IMG/VR virus record: IMGVR_UViG_2529292724_000017
Source: a virus
Lineage: Duplodnaviria > Heunggongvirae > Uroviricota > Caudoviricetes
DNA length: 19,930 bases
Reading direction: 5' to 3' (one strand)
A program made the translations under genes and the position numbers. Shown here piece by piece: positions 3,070 to 19,930 of the stretch; position 1 is the first letter of the stretch; every line of letters starts with the position of its first letter. Under the pieces are notes generated by a model. That model was given only the letters and a program-made list of their open reading frames with translations. It was not told where the DNA came from and made no database searches.

Positions 3070-3372
3070 ATGAAATTTGTAAATATACGGTCATCCGAGT
3101 TGCCTGAAATAGATACCTTTGTAAAAGAATGTATCAACCAAGGACAATGGACTCTTTTCAAGGCCGAGAAGGGTGCAGTTAATGATAATAAAGTTGCTTT
3201 TTTTCTAAAGGCTGGCAAAGATTTCTTTGCATTAAATAACAGAGGAAGTGTTATCTCTGTATTTCAATCATTAGATTATAATCTTGAAATGAATGAGGTA
3301 ATTCATTTTTCAGATATTCCTAAACCTGAATCGTTGAGCAATATTGCTAGCTTAGGATTTGCTAGAGTTTAA
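3070..3372 (+). CDS. hypothetical protein (100 aa), first gene of AT-rich two-gene cargo cassette
   Basis: ORF in AT-rich block; 18-nt gap to the next gene, which has a good SD; no family recognised. Confidence 0.55.
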   Translation: MKFVNIRSSELPEIDTFVKECINQGQWTLFKAEKGAVNDNKVAFFLKAGKDFFALNNRGSVISVFQSLDYNLEMNEVIHFSDIPKPESLSNIASLGFARV

Positions 3373-3390
3373 TATATAAGGATATGTACG

Positions 3391-4281
3391 ATGGGATTAA
3401 TATCTGGAAATACACATTGGGTATTATTTTTACCTTGTGAGCACCAACCAGAAGATCGCCATGTTCAAGATTTAGTTCATGGCGTCTTTTGCTTAGAATC
3501 CTCAGGTATACAGCCATCTAATATTAGCATATATATTGATGGCCAAAATAGAGCCAACTTTAATAAGTTAATTTCGATTGCAACCCAACATAATTATACT
3601 ATCAAGCCTACATCTGAATTTTTCACCGACTGCGATACAAATAGTTATGAAAATCTAGTTATGTTTGTGACCGGACACGGAAGTATGAATGGTTTGGACT
3701 CTGCGCCGATCATAACCCCATACCGTTTATTGGACAGGTTAAAAAACACTCCTGTTCTCAAGCAAGCAATCGTTTATCTTGGTCAATGTTTCGCTGGTGT
3801 TTTCAACTACTTACCTGCTGGGCAGCGTAAGAGAGGTGAAGATGCCGACCCCGATGTCATTCTTATCGGGGCTACGAGTCTTCATGAAAGTTTGAGTAAT
3901 CCAACAACGGAAAATATTAATGGTATAGATTTTCCTTGGGTTGCAAATCAATTTTTATATCATGTATTTAAGTGGATATCATCCCCGAATGATATCGATG
4001 GGGATGGAAAACATACAGTAATTGACTCTTATAAGTATGCTGGAATCTCATCAAACATGACCAATCGTAGAATGAAGATAGGTTCTTTTGTAGCTTCGGT
4101 AGACTTGCATGAGCAATGGAATACTGCAAAAAAAGATCATGAAGCTAACTTGGCTGATCCACAAAAACTACTCCGTTATAGAGCATTAGATCAGCAATAC
4201 TATGAAAAACTGAACATTAACTATATTCATCAAGAGTGCTGGATATTAAATTCTGTACCTGCACAATCTGTTGAATTCTAA
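3391..4281 (+). CDS. caspase-like (clan CD cysteine peptidase fold) protein, 296 aa
   Basis: Hydrophobic strand then His-Gly (LVMFVTGHGS, H96) and hydrophobic strand then Gln-Cys (AIVYLGQCFAG, C133) about 37 residues apart, the pattern of caspase/clan CD catalytic dyads; SD AAGGA 8 nt upstream; EF-hand-like loop DIDGDGKHTVID at residues 201..212. Confidence 0.6.
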   Translation: MGLISGNTHWVLFLPCEHQPEDRHVQDLVHGVFCLESSGIQPSNISIYIDGQNRANFNKLISIATQHNYTIKPTSEFFTDCDTNSYENLVMFVTGHGSMNGLDSAPIITPYRLLDRLKNTPVLKQAIVYLGQCFAGVFNYLPAGQRKRGEDADPDVILIGATSLHESLSNPTTENINGIDFPWVANQFLYHVFKWISSPNDIDGDGKHTVIDSYKYAGISSNMTNRRMKIGSFVASVDLHEQWNTAKKDHEANLADPQKLLRYRALDQQYYEKLNINYIHQECWILNSVPAQSVEF

Positions 4282-4670: not shown

Positions 4671-6587
4671 TCATGCCGCCCCGCTCGACTTCACCATGCC
4701 CCGATAATCCAGCGCCGCCACGCCAGCATCGATACGCACCTTCCATGCAATACCGTCCACAGTGAAGCCCTCCTGCTGTTCCAGATACGGCACGTCCATT
4801 CCATCCAGATATGCCACCTCGATAGTGTCGGTGCCTTGCGCTGCAGTGACGTACCACTCCTTGTTGTTGGCCTTGTCCAGTCGCGGCTCAACCACTACCT
4901 GCGCCATATCCTTCACGACGTTGATAATGCCTGGGTTCTGGTTCAGCATACCGTTCTGGTCTACCGGGAACAGCGAAGATGATGACAGCACAGCTCGATT
5001 GGCTGCGCCTTCCAGCGCGGCAGGTACAAGGATATAGGCTGGGATAACATTAATAGGATCGCCGTTCGCATCCTCCTGCAGACGCATAGCCTTACGGGCC
5101 TCATTGAGTCCGTCTGTATCCATCCCTTTAGCGATGAGGTTTTTATGGTCGGCGTGGAACAACGCTTTACCATCTGTGAATTTGCTGTTGGCGGTCAGTT
5201 GCAGGTAGACCAGATTGCCAACCGTTCGTGCGGCGGCACGCCCCATTGCCTGTGGAATGGTCGTGAGCTGGCTCAGGTCATCGTTGATAATGGCCTGGCG
5301 TGTAACAGAGAAGATGTTTCCATAGGTGGCCAGCGCGATCGGCACCCCGCTGTCGCTGGTAGTGACATATTTGTATTCAGCACCTTCCGGGACTTTATCC
5401 AGTTCTGAAAAACCATTCAGACCGACACGTTTAGCCTCATGGAAATTCGACAGAGAACCGGTCTTTGTCCACTGCTGGAAAGTTTCCCCGCTGTTCTGCC
5501 AGCCAGTCAGCACCGACTTTTCAGCACCACCAGCCAGGATATGAGAGAAATCACTGGTGCTGTGCGTAAATGCCAGGTTCACGATCTGCGAGCGATTCCC
5601 GAAACCACTGACGCTGATACCACGATCCACCAGCGAAGCCTGCGCCATTTCAAACAGACTCATCATGGCGTAAGGGTTTCCCCTTTCGGCGCGTTCGTGA
5701 CCCAGACGGGCAAAAAGCCCCTGGCGGATAGCATCGCCGGTAATGTTGCCGTTACCTGCGTAAATGTGCGCGTTACTGGTTTTATCCGATGGGGTCGAGG
5801 TCTTACCCAGTGCCGTCAGCAGCATGTCTTTTGCTTTTTCAGGCGTGCAATCCACATCCTCCAGACACTGCATCTTGAGAGAATCATGCTTGCCGCCGAA
5901 CATGGCAAACAGATCCTTAATCTCGTTGATGCGGTTCTGTTCCGGTACAGCGCTACTGGTGGAACCTTTCGGGCTGGTGATCATCCCTTTAATTTCTTTT
6001 GGCATATGCTCAAAATCCTCAATTCGTTTTGACTCAATACAGGCCATTGCCCTGACGGCGGGTAACAATTCGTCAGCAAAACCCTGCGCTACACATTCGC
6101 GGCCATCCATCCATGTTTCATCCTCCAGCATTTCCGCCAGTGATTCGGCTGATTTTCCCGTTTTGCGTGCATATGCCGGGATCAAGACACTTTCGACTTT
6201 ATCCAGAAGTTCGGCGTAGTCGCGCATGTCGTTGGCGTTCCCACCAGAGATTCCCCACGGTTTGTGAATCATCATGAGTGCGTTTTCGGGCATAACGATA
6301 CGGTCGCCAGCCATTGCAATAACTGACGCCATAGACGCGGCGAGACCGTCGATCTGCACTGTAATTTTTGCCGGGTGTTTATTCAGAAGGTTATAGATAG
6401 CGATGCCGTCAAAAACATCGCCACCGGGTGAATGAATGTGCAGGCTGATATGGGAGATATCGCCTAGGGCTTTCAGGTCTTCGGAGAACTGCTGCGCCGT
6501 AATACCCCAGCCGCCGATCTCTTCGTAGATGCTGATATTGGCGCTGGTGCCATCGCTGGCCGCTTTGATGGTGTACCAGCCTTTCAT
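4671..6587 (-). CDS. prohead protease (ClpP-like, serine motif GLAASMAS) fused to HK97-like major capsid protein, 638 aa, intact
   Basis: N-terminal ClpP-like block (IHSPGGDVFDG...GLAASMASVIAMAG); long C-terminal region typical of major capsid proteins; colinear with both fragments of the interrupted paralog. Confidence 0.7.
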   Translation of the reverse strand: MKGWYTIKAASDGTSANISIYEEIGGWGITAQQFSEDLKALGDISHISLHIHSPGGDVFDGIAIYNLLNKHPAKITVQIDGLAASMASVIAMAGDRIVMPENALMMIHKPWGISGGNANDMRDYAELLDKVESVLIPAYARKTGKSAESLAEMLEDETWMDGRECVAQGFADELLPAVRAMACIESKRIEDFEHMPKEIKGMITSPKGSTSSAVPEQNRINEIKDLFAMFGGKHDSLKMQCLEDVDCTPEKAKDMLLTALGKTSTPSDKTSNAHIYAGNGNITGDAIRQGLFARLGHERAERGNPYAMMSLFEMAQASLVDRGISVSGFGNRSQIVNLAFTHSTSDFSHILAGGAEKSVLTGWQNSGETFQQWTKTGSLSNFHEAKRVGLNGFSELDKVPEGAEYKYVTTSDSGVPIALATYGNIFSVTRQAIINDDLSQLTTIPQAMGRAAARTVGNLVYLQLTANSKFTDGKALFHADHKNLIAKGMDTDGLNEARKAMRLQEDANGDPINVIPAYILVPAALEGAANRAVLSSSSLFPVDQNGMLNQNPGIINVVKDMAQVVVEPRLDKANNKEWYVTAAQGTDTIEVAYLDGMDVPYLEQQEGFTVDGIAWKVRIDAGVAALDYRGMVKSSGAA

Positions 6588-6941: not shown

Positions 6942-7655
6942 ATGGATCTCACTCGTAATGACGAACTCCTTTTGAATGATGCAGCTAGACGCTCATTTCG
7001 GGATATGGCAGACCAGGATTATCTCTCAGCTCGTCTGTGTTATAAGCACAAATTGAATTTTCAATTTTTATGGCTTTCGCAACAAGCCGTAGAGAAATAT
7101 ATTAAAGCGATTTTACTTTATAATAGAGTTCCAGTATTAAAATTAAATCACAATTTAAACAAAGGGCTGGCAAAGATTAAAGAAATCCCATATCTTGAAT
7201 TAGACCTAGATGTAAAAAGTGAGCGATTCATAGATTATCTCAATGAGCAGGGCCCAAATAGATACTTCCAAAACACTATGTATACCGAAGGCTTTGAAAT
7301 TATAACCTTGGATAGAACCATCTGGGAATTAAGAAGATACTGCAAGCCACTAAACTACTCAATTACTAACCCAAAAGGTGAAGTGATAGAAATGTTAGAA
7401 CATGAATTGAGTAGCATAAAAAATTCGAAGTCGAGGCCTTATCATACGTTCAAACTATTTGGAGGTTACTTAGAAAAAAGATTAAAAGATAATAAATTCA
7501 ATCAGGGCGACATACTTACATGGAAAAATTTATTTTTTGGAAGAAATAAAAAAAATGCAATTAGAATTGGAAGATCAATGCATGTAACTCATCCAACTCA
7601 TTATATGTACCCAAATGCAACGGAAATGCTCAGTCGTTTCTTTAAAATAAAATAA
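6942..7655 (+). CDS. HEPN-domain protein (237 aa), single-gene AT-rich cargo
   Basis: N-terminal region matches the HEPN pattern as recalled: helix, then SQQAVEKYIKAILL, then NHNLNKGL, then ...NRYF (compare hQQAvEKalKAll ... tHdL ... RYP); SD AAAGG; opposite strand to backbone. Confidence 0.5.
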   Translation: MDLTRNDELLLNDAARRSFRDMADQDYLSARLCYKHKLNFQFLWLSQQAVEKYIKAILLYNRVPVLKLNHNLNKGLAKIKEIPYLELDLDVKSERFIDYLNEQGPNRYFQNTMYTEGFEIITLDRTIWELRRYCKPLNYSITNPKGEVIEMLEHELSSIKNSKSRPYHTFKLFGGYLEKRLKDNKFNQGDILTWKNLFFGRNKKNAIRIGRSMHVTHPTHYMYPNATEMLSRFFKIK

Positions 7656-7964: not shown

Positions 7965-9374
7965 TTAAATTATCGTGATATCTCCTGAATCATCGATAAA
8001 GATAATATTCTCCCTAACGAGTTTATCAAGCCAGCGTTTAAAACCTTTGCGGCCGTTCTCTCCAAACAGAGTGGTAATATCATCACGTATAACAGAGACA
8101 TTACACGGTTCACCTTTGGCTTTTCGGCTCCGGATTGACTGCCAGAGTGCAGCGTGGTTCCCAGTCAGGTGCTTGATATCAGCAAGTTCCGGATCAGGTT
8201 CTCGTGCCTCTCGTGGCAGGTCCTGCACCACCAGCGACGAAATAAGCTCACCATCACGATCTGTGAACAATTCGATCGGACGCAGATCGAATGCGGCCTG
8301 TTTCGGCTCCTCCGCATCTTTCATCTTCGTACAGGTCAGGATTATCGCCCCACCATCCCCCTCGCGCCGGACATTGAACTCTGCATCGAGCGCAGCCCTG
8401 AAAGCACTGGAACCACGTGCGCCTTTGGTATCGTCTTTTCCTGAATGATGCACCACCAGCAACGTGGCGCCAGTCTCACGCTTGATGACGTCGCAGCCTT
8501 CAATAAACGCCCCCATGTCACGAGCATCGTTTTCATCGTTACCACCAAAGCACCGCGCTAGAGTATCTATGACAATCAGGCGAACCGGCTGCCCCGTTTT
8601 GGACTTAACGTCACGCGCAGCTTTGATCATCTCCTGCATTTCCTCACGGCGAACCGGGAAAACCGGACGGTTTACCAGATACAGATTATTTAGTTTCACA
8701 CCATGTTTTTTCTCCCACGCCTTTATTCGCCGCGGAACGCCAATACCACCTTCACCTACTACGTACATCACAGCGCCGGCTGATACCGACTTCCCCGCCC
8801 ACTTCATCCCGGCTGCAACGTGACAAGCCCAGGACACCGCCAGAAAACTTTTATACGAACCGCTCGGGCCGTAGATACTGCTCAGGCTGTTAGCGGGAAG
8901 ATAACTTTTTAACGTGTAATCCTGCTCCTGATCGTACCCATCAGAGCCCACGCTTAAAGGAAGGCTGTGCCGCAGTGACTCCTCTCGCACAGAGACTTCA
9001 ACCTGTTCACGCAGACGAGAAAGATATTCCCTCCAGTCCTCAGGCTCATGGTCGGGGATTCCTTTATACAATTTGGCATCCTGCACGCCAGCCAGCGCCA
9101 GCTTTTCAGCAATGTTATTAATCTGGATAGGCTTTATATTCCCTGCCAGGTAAATCCGCACGGCACGACGGCCATCATCCACAATGCGCAGGTTATCCAG
9201 CTCTGCCAGTTGTTTTGGCCCAAGGTAAACAGGAGGAGTGGTATCTTCGGCAATCTGTTTACCAAGCCCCTCTTCCCAACCCTTCGCATGGGCGTATGCT
9301 TCTGACCCGGCAAAAATAACTGCCTCCGTGAATTTTTCTTTTGGCAGGTGTTTCAGATTCGGTGCGTTTTTCAT
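7965..9374 (-). CDS. replication initiator: primase-associated N-terminal domain fused to RepA/DnaB-like RecA-fold ATPase (469 aa)
   Basis: Walker A GPSGSYKS and Walker B-like LIVIDTL; first ~125 aa shared with the 14246..16063 product. Confidence 0.65.
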   Translation of the reverse strand: MKNAPNLKHLPKEKFTEAVIFAGSEAYAHAKGWEEGLGKQIAEDTTPPVYLGPKQLAELDNLRIVDDGRRAVRIYLAGNIKPIQINNIAEKLALAGVQDAKLYKGIPDHEPEDWREYLSRLREQVEVSVREESLRHSLPLSVGSDGYDQEQDYTLKSYLPANSLSSIYGPSGSYKSFLAVSWACHVAAGMKWAGKSVSAGAVMYVVGEGGIGVPRRIKAWEKKHGVKLNNLYLVNRPVFPVRREEMQEMIKAARDVKSKTGQPVRLIVIDTLARCFGGNDENDARDMGAFIEGCDVIKRETGATLLVVHHSGKDDTKGARGSSAFRAALDAEFNVRREGDGGAIILTCTKMKDAEEPKQAAFDLRPIELFTDRDGELISSLVVQDLPREAREPDPELADIKHLTGNHAALWQSIRSRKAKGEPCNVSVIRDDITTLFGENGRKGFKRWLDKLVRENIIFIDDSGDITII

Positions 9375-10158: not shown

Positions 10159-10190
10159 AACTGTTACCTCAACTAACGGTTTGTGGTTAG

Positions 10191-10235
10191 ACGTCCCGTG
10201 AGTGGTTCCAAGCACTTCCGGGACGTTGCTTTTTT
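10191..10235 (+). terminator. conserved hairpin ACGTCCCG-(20 nt)-CGGGACGT followed by TGCTTTTTT, terminator-like on the plus strand
   Basis: Paralogous hairpin at 16919..16952 has ACGCCCCG/CGGGGCGT, a compensatory base-pair change; both sit ~40 nt upstream of an Ash-like start. Confidence 0.45.
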
Positions 10236-10251
10236 CACGTCAAGCGTGATA

Positions 10252-10296
10252 ACGTACGTACGTAATAGCAACATCCTATGAGGTTACGTACGTACA
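10252..10296. promoter_or_regulatory. two palindromic operator-like sites (ACGTACGTACGT and TACGTACGTACA) flanking the promoter of the RHH gene
   Basis: Two near-identical palindromes ~33 bp apart; the second overlaps the RHH start codon; region lies between divergent genes. Confidence 0.45.
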
Positions 10297-10487
10297 TGTC
10301 AACAATAAAACGAGATAAAACACCCAAAGGAGAGGGCTTGTCTCCGACATTCCAAATCCGAATAAGTCCTGAATTGCGCCAGCAGATGAATGAAGCTGCT
10401 GAGCGTGAGGGAGTAAGTCTTGGTAATTGGCTTAAAGGTCTGGCTAGAAATGAACTTATTAAGCAAGGAATTGAACCTAAAGGTTAG
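10296..10487 (+). CDS. ribbon-helix-helix (Arc/CopG/HicB-type) DNA-binding protein, candidate repressor of the inner element
   Basis: FQIRISPELRQQMNEAAEREGVSLGNWLKGLARNEL fits a beta-strand plus two helices RHH; divergent from the replication operon; start placed at the second ATG (track ORF begins 10278). Confidence 0.55.
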   Translation: MSTIKRDKTPKGEGLSPTFQIRISPELRQQMNEAAEREGVSLGNWLKGLARNELIKQGIEPKG

Positions 10488-10540
10488 TTTTCACAAGCAC
10501 TCTTTGATTTTTTCAGTAAAAATTAAATTAAGGAAATTCT

Positions 10541-11251
10541 ATGGATGATTTATATACACCATCTGAATATTTTATGTTCGTAGAGAAATTTGATCATTAC
10601 TTCCCACGAAAAAGCCCTTTTAACTCATTATTATTCGAGTTCAATTATAGATTAGAAGATATAGTTGTTTTTCATCGCTTTGTTATCAACACCTATTCAA
10701 AAAATAAAAAAGCAATTGATGTACAATATAATAAATTTAATTTTCTTGATGATAAACAAAAAAATTCCCTTTCTGATGACGAGTATGAAGCGTATCAACT
10801 CAGGTTTGCAAGGCATATGGAATACATTAACCATCAAACTGATTTGAATGAAAAAGCGTCTTACATTGCTAACGATAGTGTCGTTATAAACTTATGGGCC
10901 ATGAATGAACAATATATGACTAGAGGATTGGCCAACCTAATATCTCAAAAAGAAAATAAAAATTTAAATGAAGTTAAAACGCCTTACAAATGGGATACAA
11001 TCAAAAGTAAATTCCTGTCATATGGAATCAACTTTGAGACATTGCCATCTTATGATGACATTAATGAATGTAGAGTACTGAATAATAAAATAAAACATCT
11101 GAACATAGTAGATTCTGGTTTAGAAGTTTTCCCTCCCTTCAAAGGTAAGCTTAACGAATCACTTACTGGCATGGCCTTTCCTCTTCAAAAATATATCATA
11201 GGCTCTCATCACTTTATAGGAATGCTATTAGAAGAGTGCTCATTAAAATAA
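10541..11251 (+). CDS. hypothetical protein (236 aa), AT-rich cargo downstream of the RHH regulator
   Basis: SD AAGGAA; 53-nt gap after the RHH gene with no obvious terminator; no family recognised. Confidence 0.55.
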   Translation: MDDLYTPSEYFMFVEKFDHYFPRKSPFNSLLFEFNYRLEDIVVFHRFVINTYSKNKKAIDVQYNKFNFLDDKQKNSLSDDEYEAYQLRFARHMEYINHQTDLNEKASYIANDSVVINLWAMNEQYMTRGLANLISQKENKNLNEVKTPYKWDTIKSKFLSYGINFETLPSYDDINECRVLNNKIKHLNIVDSGLEVFPPFKGKLNESLTGMAFPLQKYIIGSHHFIGMLLEECSLK

Positions 11252-11297
11252 ACGCATGGCAACGTATAATTTATCGCTTAATACGTTGCCATATCTC

Positions 11298-11543
11298 TCA
11301 TTTATTTTTATCGAACCAATCTCCTTTAATCCAAGCTTGCATCTCTGAGAGCCGGTAAGCAACTGCTGACGGCCCAATTTTGATTCGCTTAGGAAATTTT
11401 CCTTCCTGTTCCATGCGCCAGCGCGTTGAGTTAGACAACGTAGTCATAGCCCGGCATTCAGGTTCGCGAATCATTCTGTCAAGGTCAGGCATGTACTGGA
11501 GATCTTCTTTTTTCACAACGGATAACATAGCCATATCAGGCAC
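11298..11543 (-). CDS. alpA: AlpA-family small DNA-binding protein (transcriptional regulator/excisionase-like)
   Basis: IREPECRAMTTLSNSTRWRMEQEGKFPKRIKIGPSAVAYRLSEMQAWI matches the AlpA HTH pattern; SD AAGGAG; start overlaps the integrase stop. Confidence 0.65.
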   Translation of the reverse strand: MPDMAMLSVVKKEDLQYMPDLDRMIREPECRAMTTLSNSTRWRMEQEGKFPKRIKIGPSAVAYRLSEMQAWIKGDWFDKNK

Positions 11544-12771
11544 TCCTTTTCTTAATTACTTTTACTGTATTTTCTTCACCCACCAGCCCATCAAGGTAGT
11601 CAACCCATCGGTCCAGTGCTTCTTGCTTTTGAGGGATATACTTGCTGCGGTTATAGACTCCGGCCACGCCCTTTATGGTATGCCCCAGCAGCTGCTCTAC
11701 GACCATAAAATCAACGCCCATATCGTTAAGGCTTGTCGAGAACGTTCGTCTCAAATCATGTAATGACCAGCGTTTTTCATGTTTCAGAGAGATAAAGTTT
11801 GTGCATCCCATCGTACTGACGGTTGAATCAGATTTCAGTTCGCCAAATATGTAGCCTCTCCTTTTAGTCTCTTCGTGCAGGTTTACGATCCACTGGCGCA
11901 TTTTTTGAGGAACGGGGCGAATAATTTCTTCGCCGTTTTTACTGTGCTCTTTAGGTACTGTCCAAATCCACTTATCGAAATCCCACTCATCCCATGTAGA
12001 TAAACGCGCCTCACTCAGCCTGCAGCCAAACACGAGACACAAAATCGCCATCCTTTTTTTGTAATTCATTACACGGGTTTTGCCTTTACCATGAAAGTAC
12101 ACTCCCCACAGATCGGCGACGTAGCTTTCCTCAAGTAGCCGCTCTCTCTTGTTCTGATACTTACCGATATCACCAGGGCTCAAATCATCAAGCACATTGC
12201 ACCGCACATACTGGCGCACCCGGCAGTATTTGAAGATCTGCTTTAACTCAATCAGCATTGCAGCAGACTGAACCGGCGCGATTTTCTTTATGCGGTCGAA
12301 GCACTTGATCCAGTCTGACAGACCGCATTTCTCGACAGGAAACCCGCCGATGTAGGGAAAAATGTATCTCTCATAACGGCGATAGAGCCGTAAAGTCTCT
12401 TTGCGCTTTTCCCTGGCATAGTTATCAAACCAGTAATCGATAGCGTTCTTCACAGTTACTGGAGTGAACAGGTTCTCTTTGGTGAGTTTGTTCTCTATTC
12501 GTGGGTCGAGTCCCTGAGATAGCCATGCCCGGCACTCGTCCCTTTTCTCTCTGGCCTGTTTAAGGGTCATATCTGGATACTTGCCTAACGTCATCCAGAC
12601 GGGGGCGCTTTGTCGGCCGGAATGTCTGAAGAAATACACAAAGCTCACAGTGCCACTAACGCTCACTCTGACAGACAGTCCACGACCATCTGCCACCATC
12701 TTTTGACGCGGCTGGGGTTTACCATGTAAGGCCTTTAACGCCTTGTCGCTTAACTTGTTCTCGCCCGCCAT
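11536..12771 (-). CDS. int: tyrosine site-specific integrase, P4-type (411 aa)
   Basis: Length and motifs of phage integrases (C-terminal LHDLRRTF, LLGH, then Y in VYNRSKY); paralog at 18701..19930. Confidence 0.8.
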   Translation of the reverse strand: MAGENKLSDKALKALHGKPQPRQKMVADGRGLSVRVSVSGTVSFVYFFRHSGRQSAPVWMTLGKYPDMTLKQAREKRDECRAWLSQGLDPRIENKLTKENLFTPVTVKNAIDYWFDNYAREKRKETLRLYRRYERYIFPYIGGFPVEKCGLSDWIKCFDRIKKIAPVQSAAMLIELKQIFKYCRVRQYVRCNVLDDLSPGDIGKYQNKRERLLEESYVADLWGVYFHGKGKTRVMNYKKRMAILCLVFGCRLSEARLSTWDEWDFDKWIWTVPKEHSKNGEEIIRPVPQKMRQWIVNLHEETKRRGYIFGELKSDSTVSTMGCTNFISLKHEKRWSLHDLRRTFSTSLNDMGVDFMVVEQLLGHTIKGVAGVYNRSKYIPQKQEALDRWVDYLDGLVGEENTVKVIKKRSA

Positions 12772-12807: not shown

Positions 12808-12934
12808 TTAACTGCAACGCCGAAAAACAGTAGAAAAGCAATGCAAACAACACCTCTTCTTTCTTCATAATTAACAATAAGTTAATGAATGAATACGGTT
12901 CTTCATGCGTACCCATGAGGTAGTGTGAAGGATA

Positions 12935-12946
12935 ATGGATCATCAT
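12935..12946. repeat. 12-bp direct repeat ATGGATCATCAT, right copy (putative att core / junction)
   Basis: Identical to 2618..2629. Confidence 0.65.
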
Positions 12947-13258
12947 CATGGCGTTCTCCGGCATCACTACACGATCGCCAGCCATTGCGACCACCGAAGC
13001 CATTGAAGCCGCAACACCATCGATATAAACCGTAATGTCTGCCGGATGATTCCGTAGCAGGTTATAGATGGCGATGCCTTCAAACACATCACCACCTGGT
13101 GAATGGATCCTCAGATTGATATGTGAAACATCGCCAAGGGCTTTCAGGTCTTCCGCGAACTGCTTTGCAGTAACACCGAAGCCGCCAATCTCCTCATAGA
13201 TAGATATATCCGCCGCTCCACGAACATCCGCCGCCTTAATGGTGTACCAGCGATTCAT
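12935..13258 (-). pseudogene. ClpP-like prohead protease / capsid gene, 5' portion only (N-terminal ~108 codons)
   Basis: MNRWYTIKAADVRGAADISIYEEIGGFGV...GVAASMASVVAMAGDRVVMPENAMMMIH is colinear with the N-terminus of the intact paralog; the track ORF 12719..13258 reads on into insert DNA after the repeat. Confidence 0.7.
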
Positions 13259-14245: not shown

Positions 14246-16063
14246 TTAATTTTTGCTATCGTCATTAGTGACCGATACACATGATGGCATCCAGTCTTCT
14301 GATTCCTCCGTCAGTGTCACGTTTGAACGCAAACCGTGCTTCGTTTTCCGTTTCATATACTCCCTGCCATATTCCGCCATTGCCCCCGGCATATCTTTAC
14401 CGAAGCGCGTCAGTGTTACAGGTTTACCAAACCCATGTGCCCTCATATAAGCCAGATAGGCATGATAGAGATACCTGCGTGGGCTGAATGGCACAATTTC
14501 AGCATTACCCACTAACAGGCCATCACACATTACCGACGCCATGAGATAGCCGCAGAAGTCCACCAGCGAATCCCCCTCTCGCTTTATCGCCAGTGCTTCT
14601 TCAGATTTCTGCTGCTCATATAACAGGCGTCTGGCTTCGTCCTGGTCAGCAAACCGTGTAAGCAGATGGCGAATCACTACCGCCAGCTCACCTTCTATTT
14701 TTTCCGCCAGCATTGGATCACGTTCGTTCTCCGGTACAACTTCCGAAAAATTGAATATCACCCGACGACGTGAGATCCCCCCGCTGCGGTCACTGAATGA
14801 CATGGCGTTATTGTTAACCGCCAGCACTACTGCCGGAATACGCGTTGAGTAGGGGGCTTTGTGTTTCGGGTCAATTGCCACCTTGTCACCGCCTGTAATA
14901 GCCTTAATCCCTGCCCCATCACCAGCGTAGCGGGTCATATCCGGCATGATAATCAGCGAAAAGCCAACCACTAACGCGCGTTCCCTTGCATCTTCCAGCG
15001 CCTTCATGCTTGCCGATACTGTGTTGGCCTTACCCGCCAGCATGGTGCAAATCTCCGCCATCACGCTTTTACCACTTCCCCCTGGACCTGTTACCTCAAT
15101 GAATAACTGCCAGTCGTACCGGTTCGCCAGCACCATGAATAATGCAGCCAGTACGCGATCCGCCTTGCGGTCATTCTCAGCCACCGAACGGCGTAACCAC
15201 TTCCAGAAATTCGGCGCATGTGTTGCCAGCGTTTCCCCCTCTGCTGGTGGGCTGAAAGGTAATTCACTGGCAATTAACAACCAGTCGTTTTTGTTATGCT
15301 CCCGAAAATTACCTGTTCTGGTATCAAATACCCCGTTACTGAATCCAATCAGGTTACGGGCTGTATTCCCCATTACAGGCAAACTTAACTTCATGGTATC
15401 GACCGCCGATTTAATGGCGTTCTGCGAATAGCTGATCTCCGCATCAATGAAAATCTGTGCCATAGCTCGCTGTAATTCTTTATCCTGTACTGGCTCCCAT
15501 ACAACGCCGTTGTAATGGTGAACAGTGTCAGAGTCAGCATGAATCGCCAGTTCACCGCCATAATGTGCCAGGAGAACTTCGCCGCGTTGACTTGCTCCCA
15601 TCTGGTTAAGCGCCAGTGATGAAGCGTTATCGTCTTTTACCCGCTCTTTTTTCTTTACAGGCAGTTCAACTACCTTTTTCTTTTCCGCCTGCTCTGCCCG
15701 TTCACGTTCCAGATATTCGCGCCAGTTCTCCCGTTTCTGGCTGTGCATTCCTTCAGGATAATAATCAGCATCCCTGACACCTGCCGCTGCCAGTTTCTGC
15801 CCGATGGTATTAACAAGTCCCGGACGCAATAACCCCGCCTGGTAGAGACGCACGCGATAGCGTCCGTCTGGTACGATTTGCAGGTTGTCCAGTTCGGCAA
15901 GTTGTTGCTCTCCAAGCCAGACAGGTGGCACGTTATCGCCAGCCAGTCGCCCGTCCTGTTCCTGCCACTGCTTCGCATGTGCCCACGCATCACTACCCGC
16001 AAAAATGATGACTTCCGTCATTTTGTCACGCGGTTGGTGTTTTAAATTTGGCGCTTTTTTCAT
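14246..16063 (-). CDS. primase-helicase replication protein (P4 alpha / D5-like, SF3 helicase Walker A VTGPGGSGKS), about 605 aa
   Basis: N-terminal domain shared with the 7965..9374 product; central primase-like region; Walker A and DEAD-like motifs; start placed at MKKAPNLKH (second Met), overlapping the upstream stop as ATGA. Confidence 0.7.
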   Translation of the reverse strand: MKKAPNLKHQPRDKMTEVIIFAGSDAWAHAKQWQEQDGRLAGDNVPPVWLGEQQLAELDNLQIVPDGRYRVRLYQAGLLRPGLVNTIGQKLAAAGVRDADYYPEGMHSQKRENWREYLERERAEQAEKKKVVELPVKKKERVKDDNASSLALNQMGASQRGEVLLAHYGGELAIHADSDTVHHYNGVVWEPVQDKELQRAMAQIFIDAEISYSQNAIKSAVDTMKLSLPVMGNTARNLIGFSNGVFDTRTGNFREHNKNDWLLIASELPFSPPAEGETLATHAPNFWKWLRRSVAENDRKADRVLAALFMVLANRYDWQLFIEVTGPGGSGKSVMAEICTMLAGKANTVSASMKALEDARERALVVGFSLIIMPDMTRYAGDGAGIKAITGGDKVAIDPKHKAPYSTRIPAVVLAVNNNAMSFSDRSGGISRRRVIFNFSEVVPENERDPMLAEKIEGELAVVIRHLLTRFADQDEARRLLYEQQKSEEALAIKREGDSLVDFCGYLMASVMCDGLLVGNAEIVPFSPRRYLYHAYLAYMRAHGFGKPVTLTRFGKDMPGAMAEYGREYMKRKTKHGLRSNVTLTEESEDWMPSCVSVTNDDSKN

Positions 16064-16359
16064 TTCTGCTCTCTCCACGCGGCAATCATGTTTTTCAGTT
16101 CCTGTAGTTTTTTATCCACATCCACACGTGACACATGGTTATTTCTGGAAGGCGGGATTTCCCGCCGGAATCTGCTAATAAAGATCTCCACGTTCAGCGA
16201 GCTATGAAATGAATAGCCATCACGAATAAAGTACACACGGTCAAACATTATCGATTTTACTGTTACTCTGTTGCCGTTCTTATCCCGATAAATAGCGCCG
16301 GGGATAATTTTGGGATGTGCATAACCGCTGGCAGTCAAGCCAGATAAATATGTTCTCAT
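16060..16359 (-). CDS. conserved hypothetical protein (99 aa) translationally coupled to the primase
   Basis: Homolog of 9371..9694. Confidence 0.55.
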   Translation of the reverse strand: MRTYLSGLTASGYAHPKIIPGAIYRDKNGNRVTVKSIMFDRVYFIRDGYSFHSSLNVEIFISRFRREIPPSRNNHVSRVDVDKKLQELKNMIAAWREQK

Positions 16360-16365
16360 GATTAT

Positions 16366-16686
16366 TTATCCCCGATTTGAATCAGTATTCGCTTTCTTTA
16401 TGGCATTTAATGCATCTGTGGCATTTTCAATGGTGCACCGTAACGAAATATCAAACTGCCCAAGCATTGCCAGTAACAAACCGATATTACCCATATCAAT
16501 GCGCATGGCCTTTTCGTCATAGTCCTCATTTTCTGACGCATGCCACATCAGGCTACCAATTGACGCAACAGCCATTGATATATTGTCAGTAGCCCCATCC
16601 GCAGCGGAATAAACCTTTTTAGCAATATCATGCTCACAGTTAAAATGCGGATTAATCAGGTACTGGTAATTTGACATATCAGGCAT
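16366..16686 (-). CDS. hypothetical protein (106 aa)
   Basis: Clean composition; start overlaps the stop of the upstream Ash-like gene. Confidence 0.45.
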   Translation of the reverse strand: MPDMSNYQYLINPHFNCEHDIAKKVYSAADGATDNISMAVASIGSLMWHASENEDYDEKAMRIDMGNIGLLLAMLGQFDISLRCTIENATDALNAIKKANTDSNRG

Positions 16687-16882
16687 GGCGCACCTCCTTG
16701 CGGATACGGGCGGTGAACACCATCACGCAGCCAGCCGGGGATTGCTGGCGGGCTTCCTGTTCACTGGTGGCCACGATGGTAATCACACGCGGTTTTGCGG
16801 CGCTCAGGGCGATAAAACGCCAGGTGAATTTATTCAGGTTGTGCGAATCCCGCCCTCGCGGGTGTATGGTATGATTTCTCAT
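16679..16882 (-). CDS. Ash/Icd-like small protein (67 aa)
   Basis: MRNHTIHPRGRDSHNLNKFTWRFIALSAAKPRVITIVATSEQEARQQ...; ATG at 16880..16882 with SD GAGG; paralog of 9871..10158. Confidence 0.45.
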   Translation of the reverse strand: MRNHTIHPRGRDSHNLNKFTWRFIALSAAKPRVITIVATSEQEARQQSPAGCVMVFTARIRKEVRHA

Positions 16883-16901
16883 AGCTGCCTCGATACTCTC
16901 G

Positions 16902-18092
16902 TTATCGTTGGTGGTTAGACGCCCCGTATGTGTTTCCGGCACTGCGGGGCGTTGCTCTTTGTATTTCAACAATCCTTTCGGTGTGTTTCATGTTATGAGC
17001 GCATGAAACACACGTCAAGGCTTTTTGTATTTCTTTTTTTGTGTATACTGAAACACACCGATGATTAGGAGTTTCAGAAATGGCAACGGCTAACAAAAAC
17101 GCAAAATCACAACTGACAACTGTCAGAGTCCCACTAGATGTTATGCAAGGGATGGAATCCGTTAAGCTGGACGGCGAAAGCAATGCCGGATTTATCGTAA
17201 CCGCCATGCGCGGAGAAATAGCCCGCCGCCAAGCAGAAGGCAGCGGAGAAAATCCCCTTGTGTCGTCACTGGATGCCCTGGCTAAGGTCGAACAAATCGG
17301 CATCAAAGCAGCGGAAGAAATCGGGCAGCTTGTCACCGTTGCACGCGAAGAACTCCAGCGTCGCAAGACCAAAGAACCAGAGTAATCACCATCAGCGCCG
17401 TGGTGTAAGGTATTACGGCGCATTGCTATGCAGGACAACACAATGACCGATAAAGAATTGACCAAAACATTATCACCGGCACGGAAAAGACGGCGCAGAA
17501 AGATAGAGCATGAATCAGAAAGATTCGCGCCATGTGCTTTTGCTCTTGAGAAATTCCTTAAAGAGCACAGGAAAAAGCTCTCGTTGCAAACCTTGGAACG
17601 AACCAAATCTGACTGATCACATTGCCCACCAGCCGCAAATGTGGCATTGTTGGTGATGCTCATGCGTTGGGGATAACGTGTAGCTTGTGTCGAGGGGCCA
17701 CCGTAGCGGGTGGCCTTTGTTTTGCCTGTTATCCGGCAATTGTGGCGCTTCGCCACACGGTTGATATAATCCCACTGCTCAGATTCATTTTTTGCGCAGT
17801 AGGTTAATTGTTCACAAAGGCGCTCCGGCAACGGGGCGCTTTTTGTTTTTATTAGTTTGTAGAAACCTGACTCAGAGATAATGCTCATATTCTGATTGCC
17901 GTCAGGGGTGTAAGTTAAATTTACTCCCTTTTTATCATCAAACATCTGCAACGCTCTGGCGTTAACAATATTGGTTTCACTCCCGCCAGTAAGGCCGGAA
18001 ATAACCGGAATAATTTCGGCAAAATTTTGCAGATTCTGTTTTTCAGGACGAACGAAGCCCCGCCCTTGTTCGGGAGAATATCCAGTATTCAT
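16902..18092 (-). CDS. uncertain long ORF (396 codons): the N-terminal ~150 codons look protein-like, the rest is Ser/Arg/Cys-rich and overlaps plus-strand genes
   Basis: Only 17620..18092 looks coding by composition; probably a gene remnant or a spurious extension. Confidence 0.2.
   Translation of the reverse strand: MNTGYSPEQGRGFVRPEKQNLQNFAEIIPVISGLTGGSETNIVNARALQMFDDKKGVNLTYTPDGNQNMSIISESGFYKLIKTKSAPLPERLCEQLTYCAKNESEQWDYINRVAKRHNCRITGKTKATRYGGPSTQATRYPQRMSITNNATFAAGGQCDQSDLVRSKVCNESFFLCSLRNFSRAKAHGANLSDSCSIFLRRLFRAGDNVLVNSLSVIVLSCIAMRRNTLHHGADGDYSGSLVLRRWSSSRATVTSCPISSAALMPICSTLARASSDDTRGFSPLPSAWRRAISPRMAVTINPALLSPSSLTDSIPCITSSGTLTVVSCDFAFLLAVAISETPNHRCVSVYTKKEIQKALTCVSCAHNMKHTERIVEIQRATPRSAGNTYGASNHQR
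16919..16952 (+). promoter_or_regulatory. conserved hairpin ACGCCCCG-(18 nt)-CGGGGCGT upstream of the Ash-like gene
   Basis: Paralog of 10191..10226 with a compensatory base-pair change. Confidence 0.4.
17080..17385 (+). CDS. hypothetical protein (101 aa), possibly an RHH-type regulator divergent from the replication operon
   Basis: SD AGGAG; balanced composition; TTVRVPLDVMQGMESV suggests a beta-strand plus helix; same position and orientation as the RHH gene of the inner element. Confidence 0.45.
   Translation: MATANKNAKSQLTTVRVPLDVMQGMESVKLDGESNAGFIVTAMRGEIARRQAEGSGENPLVSSLDALAKVEQIGIKAAEEIGQLVTVAREELQRRKTKEPE
17428..17616 (+). CDS. hypothetical small basic protein (62 aa)
   Basis: Same frame as and downstream of 17080..17385; basic (ARKRRRRK); weak support. 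Confidence 0.25.
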   Translation: MQDNTMTDKELTKTLSPARKRRRRKIEHESERFAPCAFALEKFLKEHRKKLSLQTLERTKSD

Positions 18093-18144
18093 GGTTAGAT
18101 CTCTGTATTAGTGGATGGGTGGCGGCTGTGTGCCGCCAGCCTGA

Positions 18145-18333
18145 TTAGTGAACTGCCTCGCAGCTTTCCTTCCATGCCAGAACTTCGGATAAAGACCAGC
18201 CAACGGAACGACCGCCGAGCTTACGCCGTGATGGGAATTGTCCGGTTTTTTCCAGGCGGTACCGACATGAACGGCTCAGGCCTGTAAGTTGCTGACATTC
18301 TTTTTCACGTATAAAGCGATCTGTGCTTAACAC
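18145..18333 (-). CDS. alpA: AlpA-family small DNA-binding protein (start uncertain; track ORF extends to 18501)
   Basis: STDRFIREKECQQLTGLSRSCRYRLEKTGQFPSRRKLGGRSVGWSLSEVLAWKES aligns with the 11298..11543 AlpA; GTG at 18331..18333 preceded by AAAGGGGGA. Confidence 0.55.
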   Translation of the reverse strand: MLSTDRFIREKECQQLTGLSRSCRYRLEKTGQFPSRRKLGGRSVGWSLSEVLAWKESCEAVH

Positions 18334-18375
18334 AATTCCCCCTTTGATATTTCTTAAAGAGTTATTTGGTGTCCT

Positions 18376-18678
18376 ATTGTGTTGTGGTGCGTCGGATTGT
18401 GTCAGGGTGTTTATGGAATGGCAAACACTGGCGGCGGTCATTTTACAGAAGTGTGGTAATGAGAATAAAAACTCTTTTAATTCATTGTGGTGCAAAGGCA
18501 TAAAATTCTGTTTTTACGCCTTTTTTACATGTTTTTAAGAGTGATTCGCCAATGTACAAAAAGCCAGTAAAACGACTGAAAATCAACTTTTTAGGGTGTC
18601 AGTCAGATGTTAATCAAGTTTGTTCCAGATTGTTCGCCGTTGTTCGTCGTGGTGTCTCGTTGTTTCACGTTGTGTCAG
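18376..18678. promoter_or_regulatory. TTGTGT / TTGTGTCAG / TTGTTCG repeat clusters in the int-alpA intergenic region
   Basis: Motif (A/G)TTGTGTCAG near 18396, 18595 and 18670, plus TGTTCG runs at 18620..18660. Confidence 0.3.
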
Positions 18679-18700: not shown

Positions 18701-19930
18701 TTATATTTCTCTGGCTATTGGCAGTGTGGTTACGTTTTTGTGAGTACCCGCCAGTATCTCTAACCGCTCTGTCCACATGTCCAGCGCATTACGTTTCGCA
18801 TCGAGATAACGGGAGTGGTTATAGACTCGCTGCATCCCTGGCATCTGGTGAGCGGTGAGTTGTTCGACAATATGCGGATCCACGCCTAAATCGTTCAGCA
18901 TCGTGGTAAACGTGCGCCGTATATCGTGTAGTGACCAGTGCGGATGGTTTAATTTTTTGTGCATGAATCTGCCGTATTGCGACACACTGGCTTCCTGTTT
19001 CAGTTCCCCGAGTAATAGCCCTGTGTGTCTGTTCTGCTCCACCAGCTGCGTGACGAACGGTAAAATGCTTTCCGGTATTGGCCTGAATATGGCGACCTTC
19101 GTTTTGCTGTGCTCTTTCGGTACTGTCCAGAGCATTTCCTTAAAATCCCACTCCCTGATCTCCGATAATCTCAGTTCTCCGGTTCGGCAGCCGAACACAA
19201 TCAGGAGGCGGATTAGTGCGCTGTAGTAGGGCGGGAATATTTTTTTATCCAGCGCCTGTAATAATTCGCCAAGTTCTTTGTTGCTCAGCACGCGTTCGCT
19301 TATGCCTGGTTTTTTGCCAACGTCCACCACGTTAAGATCATCCAGAACGTTACTGACTGCGTAGCGACGTTTACGGCAGAACTTAAGCGCCTGTTTACAC
19401 GCCTGCATCATGTGACCAGACGTTACAGGGGATTTTTTGCGTATCCGGTCAAAACAGGCCAGCCAGTGACGTAACTCGCATTTATCCAGTGGCATATTGC
19501 CAATATGCTGTATGACGTGATTATTCAGGCGGCTTTTCAGGCATACGTAATCGACACGGTTTTCCTTTACGTGCATTTCCAGCCAGTAGCTGATCGCATC
19601 ACCCACCGTTACCGGCTTTAGTGCTTCCTGTATGGAGTAATTAAGCTCATGGCGTGGATTTTTTCCTTCTGCCAGCCATGCGCGACACTGTGCCGCTTTT
19701 TCCCTGGCTGCTTTCAGGCTCAGATCAGGATAATTTCCCAGCTTCAGGCGTTCCGGTGATACCTGGCGTCCAGCTCCTGCCCTGTAGGTGAAATCCCAGG
19801 TTAACAAGCCGCTGGTGGAATGCCTGACGCTCAGGTTTCCCCCGTCATTAAGAAATGTGGTTTTTGGGGCTGGTGTGCCGTTGATTTTTCTTAGCTGTGT
19901 ATCGCTCAGTTTGTTAAGTGCTCTGCTCAT
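18701..19930 (-). CDS. int: tyrosine site-specific integrase, P4-type (409 aa)
   Basis: Homolog of 11536..12771 (diverged); C-terminal HDIRRTF and Y in VYNHSRY; start codon at the window edge. Confidence 0.8.
   Translation of the reverse strand: MSRALNKLSDTQLRKINGTPAPKTTFLNDGGNLSVRHSTSGLLTWDFTYRAGAGRQVSPERLKLGNYPDLSLKAAREKAAQCRAWLAEGKNPRHELNYSIQEALKPVTVGDAISYWLEMHVKENRVDYVCLKSRLNNHVIQHIGNMPLDKCELRHWLACFDRIRKKSPVTSGHMMQACKQALKFCRKRRYAVSNVLDDLNVVDVGKKPGISERVLSNKELGELLQALDKKIFPPYYSALIRLLIVFGCRTGELRLSEIREWDFKEMLWTVPKEHSKTKVAIFRPIPESILPFVTQLVEQNRHTGLLLGELKQEASVSQYGRFMHKKLNHPHWSLHDIRRTFTTMLNDLGVDPHIVEQLTAHQMPGMQRVYNHSRYLDAKRNALDMWTERLEILAGTHKNVTTLPIAREI

Follow-up and report, generated by a model that had tools for sequence, protein, structure and literature searches.

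A long minus-strand frame antisense to a predicted YlcI-type repressor operon in a nested phage satellite: a candidate variant of P4 eta

Introduction

In satellite phage P4, eta (8168–8812 of NC_001609, minus strand) overlaps the end of vis (8764–9030), which encodes an AlpA homolog. A published account summarising work on P4 describes eta as coupled to the alpA homolog, its translation as preventing premature termination, the promoter PLE as internal to eta and Kil as a truncated form (PMC10111431). Here we analyse positions 16902–18092 of a 19,930-nucleotide Caudoviricetes stretch (IMG/VR record IMGVR_UViG_2529292724_000017; the whole stretch is hereafter called the window), which represents the Escherichia coli tRNA-Ile/mug locus and carries one phage satellite nested within another. 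The interval belongs to the outer element and is filled by a minus-strand open reading frame (ORF) of 396 codons that runs antisense to two plus-strand ORFs. An earlier sequence-only reading of the window had suggested either a minus-strand gene disrupted by plus-strand cargo or a genuine overlapping arrangement.

In Gram-negative phage-inducible chromosomal islands (PICIs), a 'Bro zone' with variable Bro-N and AntA content separates the replication zone from the integration zone, which holds int and alpA (PMC10111431). The interval studied here has the same placement; unlike that zone, its Bro-N and AntA parts are fragments only. The same account describes PICI genes as essentially unidirectional and mentions neither YlcI nor antisense overlap. 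According to published work, no global repressor of Gram-negative PICIs had been identified, and the existence of one is called unclear (PMC6092414). Our literature search found no published function for the YlcI/YnfO family, no link between that family and PICI regulation and no description of the antisense ORF. Long antisense overlapping genes have been reported from ribosome profiling of single species, in enterohaemorrhagic E. coli (EHEC) and in Pseudomonas (PMC9927249, PMC8850804).

Results

A minus-strand frame shares its DNA with two plus-strand ORFs

All three ORFs of the interval are present exactly as first described, and they are followed on the minus strand by an Icd-like gene:
16902..18092, minus strand: candidate eta-like leader ORF of 396 codons, ATG start, 396 aa
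17080..17385, plus strand: ylcI-like gene, 101 aa, with a ribbon-helix-helix (RHH) domain and a long C-terminal helix (aa 59–97)
17428..17616, plus strand: small basic ORF, 62 aa (likely start ATG at 17443, giving 57 aa), in the same frame as ylcI
16679..16882, minus strand: Icd-like gene, 67 aa, P4 Kil family, NCBIfam phage_ICD_like

The minus-strand gene order is int (18701–19930), alpA (18145–18501), the 396-codon ORF and the Icd-like gene, with two small genes and then primase (14246–16078) further downstream. We consider it fairly probable that two real layers overlap in 16902–18092, namely a plus-strand repressor operon and a minus-strand eta-like leader ORF that would couple AlpA-driven transcription to icd and primase. 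The evidence consists of selection for openness of the minus frame, coupled starts and ends, Kil homology, an RHH fold and the layout of operator-like sites. Neither strand is spurious.

From its 5' end, the ORF passes through AntA/Bro-N fragments, two plus-strand terminators, the small ORF, ylcI and a promoter-operator region before it reaches the Shine–Dalgarno (SD) site of icd. Within 16905–18092, its frame contains no stop codon, whereas the other minus frames contain 26 and 21 and the plus frames 11–17, so that its openness is far beyond chance. The stretches of the window that are non-coding on the plus strand (16905–17079, 17386–17427 and 17617–18092) are likewise stop-free in the ORF frame. 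Codon position 3 coincides for both plus ORFs and the minus ORF, falling on coordinates divisible by three, and a minus-frame stop is possible only at plus-strand xxY-TAN or xxT-CAN. With a shared wobble position, amino-acid conservation on one strand automatically gives conservation on the other.

The frame is open across related satellites

A protein search with the 396-aa ORF returned 1490 matches, many of them 425–540 aa long, 59–83% identical and named 'Icd-like'. Because a sample drawn in this way is biased towards open frames, we anchored another on YlcI, comprising 80 viral loci, 80 metagenome loci and annotated genomes. An ORF spans ylcI in 162 of the 164 YlcI-anchored loci, with a median length of 340 aa. 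Across 13 representative loci (the window, five E. coli classes and seven other genera; 655–1221 nt), the shared frame has no stops, against totals of 246 and 248 in the other minus frames and 117–210 in the plus frames. It remains open for 237–418 codons in Yersinia, Photorhabdus, Xenorhabdus, Klebsiella, Edwardsiella, Serratia and Enterobacter, the seven genera in which gene callers left it unannotated.

Openness extends to DNA without plus-strand coding sequence, namely the 198-nt divergent promoter region. Its sequences sort into 11 diverged classes, whose representatives have four stops in total in the ORF frame versus 56–58 in the other minus frames. The region is stop-free in the ORF frame in eight of the 11 classes, and the single stop of the window there is the ORF terminator itself. 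Identity at the DNA level in this part of the ORF is 55–65% between classes, and the frame is still open. Taken together, these comparisons indicate that selection keeps the minus frame open across related satellites.

The least credible of the alternatives is that the long ORF is an artefact of chance or composition that hitch-hikes with conserved DNA, to which we assign next to no probability. An antisense frame of this type is generally the least stop-prone, and the plus strand is A-rich, with an AT skew of up to +0.32. The sister minus frames, which have the same composition and carry the stops counted above, already contradict this explanation, as do the open frame in diverged promoter classes and seven genera and the conserved coupling of SD site and ATG described below.

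Over the coding part, the antisense frame is open across ylcI in 63 of 66 distinct coding sequences and in all 29 small-ORF variants. Synonymous resampling gave a probability of an open frame, P(open), of 0.00–0.35 per ylcI with E. coli codon usage and 0.00–0.88 with the gene's own codons. These values bear on the suggestion that the frame in the window is a decaying relic, that is, a deletion-fused AntA/Bro-N pseudogene that reads into a cheaply open antisense frame and is no longer functional. Openness is indeed cheap here, as YlcI lacks Tyr and His and contains few Gln residues, and own-codon P(open) is 0.68 for the ylcI of the window and 0.69 for its small ORF. The antisense frame of ylcI in the K-12 prophage DLP12 is also open, for 90 codons, a single control too small to inform. 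Consistent with decay, the frame in the window is unfused from icd, has a weak SD site and a chimeric 5' end, and the Prokaryotic Genome Annotation Pipeline (PGAP) annotates nothing across 17386–18144 of a 98.6%-identical genome (E. coli clone D i14, aligned over 16684–18600). On the other side, the same 5' module is fused to icd in the backbones L008, L074, L131 and L155 (428–471 aa), four other genera have independently arrived at the unfused state, with a stop 14–19 nt before icd, and the non-coding stretches of the window are free of stops in a frame whose minus-strand sisters carry 21–26 over the whole ORF. We therefore regard a relic as unlikely.

Three further analyses were uninformative. 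On 17617–18092, where no plus ORF overlaps, the ratio of non-synonymous to synonymous substitution rates had no power, the loci being 98.3–100% identical with three variable sites. An AlpA-anchored scan of genome contigs recovered one distant Vibrio locus only, and tblastn against phage genomes for lambdoid controls gave one weak match for the Icd query and none for the YlcI N-terminus. As a separate observation, a metagenomic/viral locus (L070, −1537 to +880 relative to the ylcI start) has a minus frame open for 805 codons, from alpA through ylcI and icd and beyond.

Starts and ends are coupled to the neighbouring genes

In relatives, the frame begins with an SD site and ATG at or over the stop of an upstream alpA or antA gene. 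One junction type has the ORF directly after alpA (TAA-AGGGGAG-ATG), a second reads GGAGGAAAACAGCC-ATG, with an 8-nt overlap with the stop of a full AntA gene and behind GGAGG, and in a third the start overlaps a Bro-N gene. What these unrelated junction types have in common is mostly the SD site and the start codon. The same coupling of SD and ATG to the upstream gene is seen in Photorhabdus, Serratia and Yersinia, and many relatives have a gap of 5–15 nt or an overlap, with a strong SD site.

At the other end, most loci have the ORF joined in frame to Icd, yielding ORFs of 425–528 aa that end in an Icd-like domain. Where it is unfused, it ends 14–18 nt before icd in Yersinia, Photorhabdus, Klebsiella and Xenorhabdus. 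The corresponding stop in the window (16902–16904) sits on GAGG, the SD site of icd, and leaves 19 nt to the icd ATG. The stop-free frame, the coupled starts and the fusion or adjacency to icd lend comparative support to a genuine overlapping arrangement.

The interval between alpA and ylcI is variable in relatives and may hold Bro-N, AntA, both, or AT-rich plus-strand membrane-protein cargo. The idea of a hotspot at this position thus stands in a broader sense, and fails for ylcI and the small ORF, which are not cargo. In a large class of elements, a gene for a 178-aa predicted membrane protein lies between ylcI and alpA, replaces the small ORF and breaks the minus ORF chain. One example is the AT-rich plus-strand gene of L111, encoding a predicted membrane protein of 178 aa (653–1189 relative to the ylcI start; 2271–2807 of the locus). 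This gene is probably accessory or defence cargo.

The 5' end is chimeric and the product is predicted to be unfolded

The sequence-only reading had found the first ~150 codons protein-like. Protein homology was detected for the first ~97 only. Three features inside the ORF are relevant here:
17946..18077, minus strand: AntA/AntB N-terminus fragment, ORF codons 6–49 (BLASTP, 77% identity to aa 6–49 of the L006 AntA/AntB, E 2e-20)
17802..17969, minus strand: Bro-N gene fragment, ORF codons 42–97 (BLASTP, 59% identity to aa 57–115 of the L005 BRO-N protein; DNA alignment)
17222..17247, minus strand: terminator-like hairpin antisense to YlcI codons 48–56 (9 pairs, 7 of them G-C)

Neither a complete Bro-N domain (PF02498) nor a complete AntA domain (PF08346) was found in the 396-aa ORF. 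For Bro-N, Pfam gave a partial match with E 0.06, covering profile positions 37–85 of 96 and scoring 14.4 bits where the cutoff is 25.6; the rest of that domain is missing. The degenerate part is the 5' end of the ORF only, a chimera pieced together from fragments of AntA and Bro-N antirepressor genes. AlphaFold predicts an unfolded product, with a predicted local distance difference test score (pLDDT) of 27.4 from 52 sequences, every residue below 50 and a predicted template modelling score (pTM) of 0.13. The hairpin at 17222–17247 is a candidate for a site at which read-through would need translation.

Might the long ORF instead encode a functional Eta-like member of the 'Bro network' whose activity is sequence-specific, for instance in antirepression or DNA binding, and so form a true two-protein antisense pair with the plus genes? 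Its N-terminus is homologous to AntA and Bro-N, P4 eta has been treated as a Bro-network gene (PMC10111431), and >1000 database proteins of 400–540 aa share the layout. The wobble test on ylcI points the same way, since transversions that are non-synonymous on both strands (1/94) are rarer than those non-synonymous on the plus strand only (15/141), and the ratio for changes synonymous on plus and non-synonymous on minus is 0.18, against 0.28 for those synonymous on both. Against a functional protein stand the AlphaFold result, in which all 396 of 396 residues lack a confident structure, and the truncated Bro-N domain. In addition, the N-terminal modules are interchangeable or absent, many classes starting directly after alpA; the promoter-region part is only 55–65% identical at the DNA level between classes and yet open; and the composition is that expected from the antisense of a gene rich in Lys, Glu and Arg. 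A working protein is accordingly an improbable explanation of the frame.

The plus strand carries a predicted repressor operon

The ylcI-like ORF had been noted for an SD site and a possible RHH fold, and both are borne out. An AGGAG site lies 7 nt before its ATG, and the product matches NF041551 (YlcI/YnfO) at 63.2 bits, against a curated cutoff of 30, over aa 9–50 and the full profile. AlphaFold models it as an RHH with a pLDDT of 79.9 from 42 sequences. In the wobble test, plus-non-synonymous transversions are depleted in ylcI (15/141 versus 46/164). The ORF is a real gene of the YlcI/YnfO RHH family, and its product is a candidate repressor of the leftward icd-primase promoter. The small ORF is conserved in 97 of the 164 loci, in 29 distinct variants, and is annotated by PGAP in some genomes. 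It matches no family, and the wobble-class test on it did not discriminate between the strands; we consider it probably a real gene. The two genes form a conserved core module and are not cargo.

The regulatory elements in and around the operon are as follows:
17040..17049, plus strand: extended −10 element TGTGTATACT of the ylcI promoter, read from sequence
16981..17013, no strand assigned: operator-like inverted repeat GTGTGTTTCATG / CATGAAACACAC, overlapping the spacer and −10 of the leftward promoter
17049..17058, no strand assigned: third operator-like half-site TGAAACACAC, directly after the ylcI −10 element
16990..17018, minus strand: predicted leftward sigma-70-like promoter TTGACG-17-TAACAT, inside the long ORF and upstream of icd
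17693..17728, plus strand: first of the two intrinsic terminators of the ylcI operon, lying inside the minus ORF, with equivalents in L006 and L129
17816..17853, plus strand: intrinsic terminator 2, 12-bp stem, embedded in the minus ORF; same hairpin in L006 at 3475–3500
16919..16952, no strand assigned: conserved hairpin ACGCCCCG...CGGGGCGT where the long ORF ends, within the icd leader; weak plus-strand terminator-like site

Nine of the ten promoter classes compared carry the TGTGTATACT motif, differing from it by two bases at most. At the position of the leftward promoter, L129 has TTGACA-17-TAAAGT, and the GTCAAG motif of that promoter occurs in six of the ten classes, the other four being one base off. 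The half-sites form three 10-nt copies at fixed positions, and relatives carry class-specific repeats at the same positions that change with the N-terminal residues of YlcI. YlcI most likely binds these putative operators, whose arrangement resembles that of a small autoregulating repressor, and the position of TGAAACACAC suggests autoregulation of ylcI. The stem of the ACGCCCCG...CGGGGCGT hairpin varies by class (GCCCCG, GCCCGG, ACCCCA, ACCCG) with pairing kept, and a T-rich run follows it 3' on the plus strand; the hairpin may insulate the ylcI promoter or act as an RNA element of the icd leader.

It follows that ylcI is not a spurious shadow of a single real minus gene. Such an explanation could appeal to the minus ORF being full-length at 59–83% amino-acid identity in hundreds of database entries, and to the wobble test on the small ORF, in which plus-frame constraint was not apparent. 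It had also been supposed that the plus ORFs would prove spurious if the minus ORF were conserved from end to end. That expectation fails because the strands share wobble positions, so that minus-frame identity is accounted for without false plus genes, and because ylcI is supported independently: it scores twice the curated family cutoff, comes with a consensus SD site, its own promoter and two strong downstream terminators, is confidently predicted to fold as an RHH with a long helix, shows the depletion of plus-non-synonymous transversions given above, and is accompanied by operator repeats that vary with its N-terminal residues. The explanation is already contradicted for ylcI, and overall we allow it very little probability. 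Nor did the proposal that plus-strand cargo had disrupted a minus-strand gene survive comparison, given that ylcI is core and the antisense frame is open in 63/66 ylcI sequences and in seven other genera.

The Icd-like gene and the name of the long frame

The Icd-like gene matches NF033153 at 66.5 bits, against a curated cutoff of 25. The same model matches P4 Eta at aa 161–208 with 73 bits, these last 48 aa being Kil. Databases list >1000 proteins of 400–540 aa under the name 'host cell division inhibitor Icd-like protein', and the Icd model matches only their last ~48 residues. The name has spread via similarity to the long frame, and in one genome PGAP calls a pseudogene of 'Icd-like protein' across ylcI (L007, 2891–3370). 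The annotation is thus inconsistent, with the frame named 'Icd-like' in databases and yet not called in other genomes.

Nested satellites and the surrounding window

The inner satellite, of ~10.3 kb, extends from int (11536–12771) through its own ClpP/capsid fusion gene (4671–6587), and splits the ClpP-protease/capsid gene of the outer element into 12929–13258 and 1028–2629. A satellite inside the ClpP/capsid gene of a tRNA-Ile2 PICI is the configuration described as a 'helper-embedded PICI' (PMC10111431); the int-alpA module of the outer element differs from the type published for it. The nearest genomes match the window at 99.7% identity as far as about 16950 or 17659 and diverge beyond, and the int-alpA-ORF module matches other strains at 98.6%, from which we conclude that the region is a recombination mosaic. 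Homologous DNA occurs in about 2,300 E. coli genomes. Upstream of the long ORF lie:
18145..18501, minus strand: alpA, AlpA-family regulator, longest ORF 118 aa (Pfam Phage_AlpA, E 1.3e-17, aa 61–110)
18424–18396 and 18405–18376, minus strand: alpA promoter-like sites

In E. coli clone D i14, PGAP annotates alpA as 18145–18333 only (62 aa).

The equivalent region of the inner element (10159–11297) carries a HicB-family gene (10296–10487, plus strand) and a gene for a 236-aa cargo protein (10541–11251, plus strand), both between the inner Icd-like and helix-turn-helix genes. Each minus frame of this interval contains 21–27 stops, and the longest open run is 82 codons. The two nested satellites therefore solve the same position differently, the inner one doing so without an eta-like frame. 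Elsewhere in the inner element, AT-rich plus-strand genes at 3070–4281 and 6942–7655 encode two hypothetical proteins (32–38% GC) and a HEPN-domain protein, and are likely accessory or defence genes.

Discussion

Under the two-layer reading, translation of the minus frame, its anti-termination role and repression by YlcI would fit together as a switch. In the quiescent state, YlcI would keep the leftward promoter off and regulate ylcI itself. Induction of AlpA by a helper phage would send transcripts that start at the alpA promoter into the region, and ribosomes on the long frame would cover the RNA, preventing termination by Rho or at hairpins. Translational coupling would then hand ribosomes to icd and onward to the primase operon. 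Read-through to icd and primase would in this way be independent of repression at the internal promoter, and convergent transcription would shut off ylcI. The act of translation, not the polypeptide, would be what matters, and the AntA/Bro-N leftovers of the first ~97 codons would supply a start.

Several observations weigh against this reading. In the window, 53 nt separate the alpA stop from the ORF ATG (18092), the SD site is weak (GAGA), and the ORF is not in frame with icd. A Rho-loading signature (C-rich, G-poor) was sought on the minus strand, and no marked bias of C over G was found. The loci compared are related and recombining, so that the counts above are not fully independent. The minus ORF chain is broken in the class with the plus-strand cargo insertion, and the eta-like frame is absent from the inner element of the window; as it is not universal, such satellites manage without one. 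Finally, there is a hint from the ylcI wobble test that the amino acids of the minus frame are under some constraint, which would be unexpected if only translation mattered.

A broader proposal, which we put forward tentatively and hold to be somewhat less probable than its negation, is that selection in enterobacterial phage satellites maintains an ORF of 240–530 codons antisense through a whole repressor operon (promoter and operators, RHH gene, small ORF and terminator), with shared wobble, that its translation and not its unfolded product is a switch letting AlpA-driven transcription override immunity and reach icd and primase, and that the YlcI/YnfO RHH protein is the Gram-negative PICI repressor. 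If true, the locus would be a protein-repressor counterpart of the P4 circuit of eta and CI RNA. Long antisense overlaps in bacteria are disputed, and here comparative data alone give very strong evidence of maintenance, the difference between zero and about 250 sister-frame stops spanning genera and unalignable promoter classes. The shared-wobble geometry permits mutations that are silent on one strand and nonsense on the other. Translation-coupled read-through, as in P4 eta, would offer a concrete reason for the antisense overlap, and an RHH protein with class-specific operator-like sites over the promoter of the replication operon is a candidate for the Gram-negative PICI repressor.

Comparison with known systems

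Several described systems resemble parts of this locus. With Arc/CopG-type RHH repressors and the YlcI/YnfO family (NF041551), the ylcI-like product shares a 42-aa N-terminal domain and the RHH fold, and the sites over a divergent promoter pair form an operator layout typical of small phage repressors. It differs from them in its extra long C-terminal helix and in being embedded in an antisense ORF. Like the cases from EHEC and Pseudomonas, the locus has a long ORF that lies antisense to annotated genes and shows signs of selection. Unlike them, it offers comparative evidence over many genera, an overlap that takes in a whole operon with its regulatory DNA, and a proposed role for translation itself rather than for a protein product.

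P4-type RNA immunity was considered for this element and rejected, as an Rfam scan of the whole window (E≤1) detected no CI (C4), seqA (isrK) or other RNA family, whereas both RNAs were found in P4. Phage_ASH (PF10554) likewise has no match in the 396-aa ORF, whereas P4 Eta matches it at E 4.5e-23; some relatives, such as P0099, also carry it. In P4 itself (L169), the Phage_ASH region of Eta (aa 37–161; 8330–8704) covers the CI (C4) RNA at 8420–8507 and seqA/isrK at 8615–8692, and conservation of this 'protein family' may partly reflect RNA constraints.

The closest parallel remains P4 eta, with which the ORF shares a position after an alpA/vis homolog, polarity, an internal leftward promoter, a Kil/Icd partner and a place upstream of the primase operon; the predicted promoter at 16990–17018 would be the positional analogue of the constitutive PLE. 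In contrast to P4 eta, the ORF is about twice as long, and in contrast to the nested eta/kil genes of the P4 left operon, it is out of frame with icd and stops 19 nt upstream of it. It also runs antisense to a protein-repressor operon that has a promoter, operator-like sites and terminators of its own. By analogy, the minus frame would be the satellite's counterpart or variant of P4 eta/kil, and the antisense overlap of a repressor operon would be the new part.

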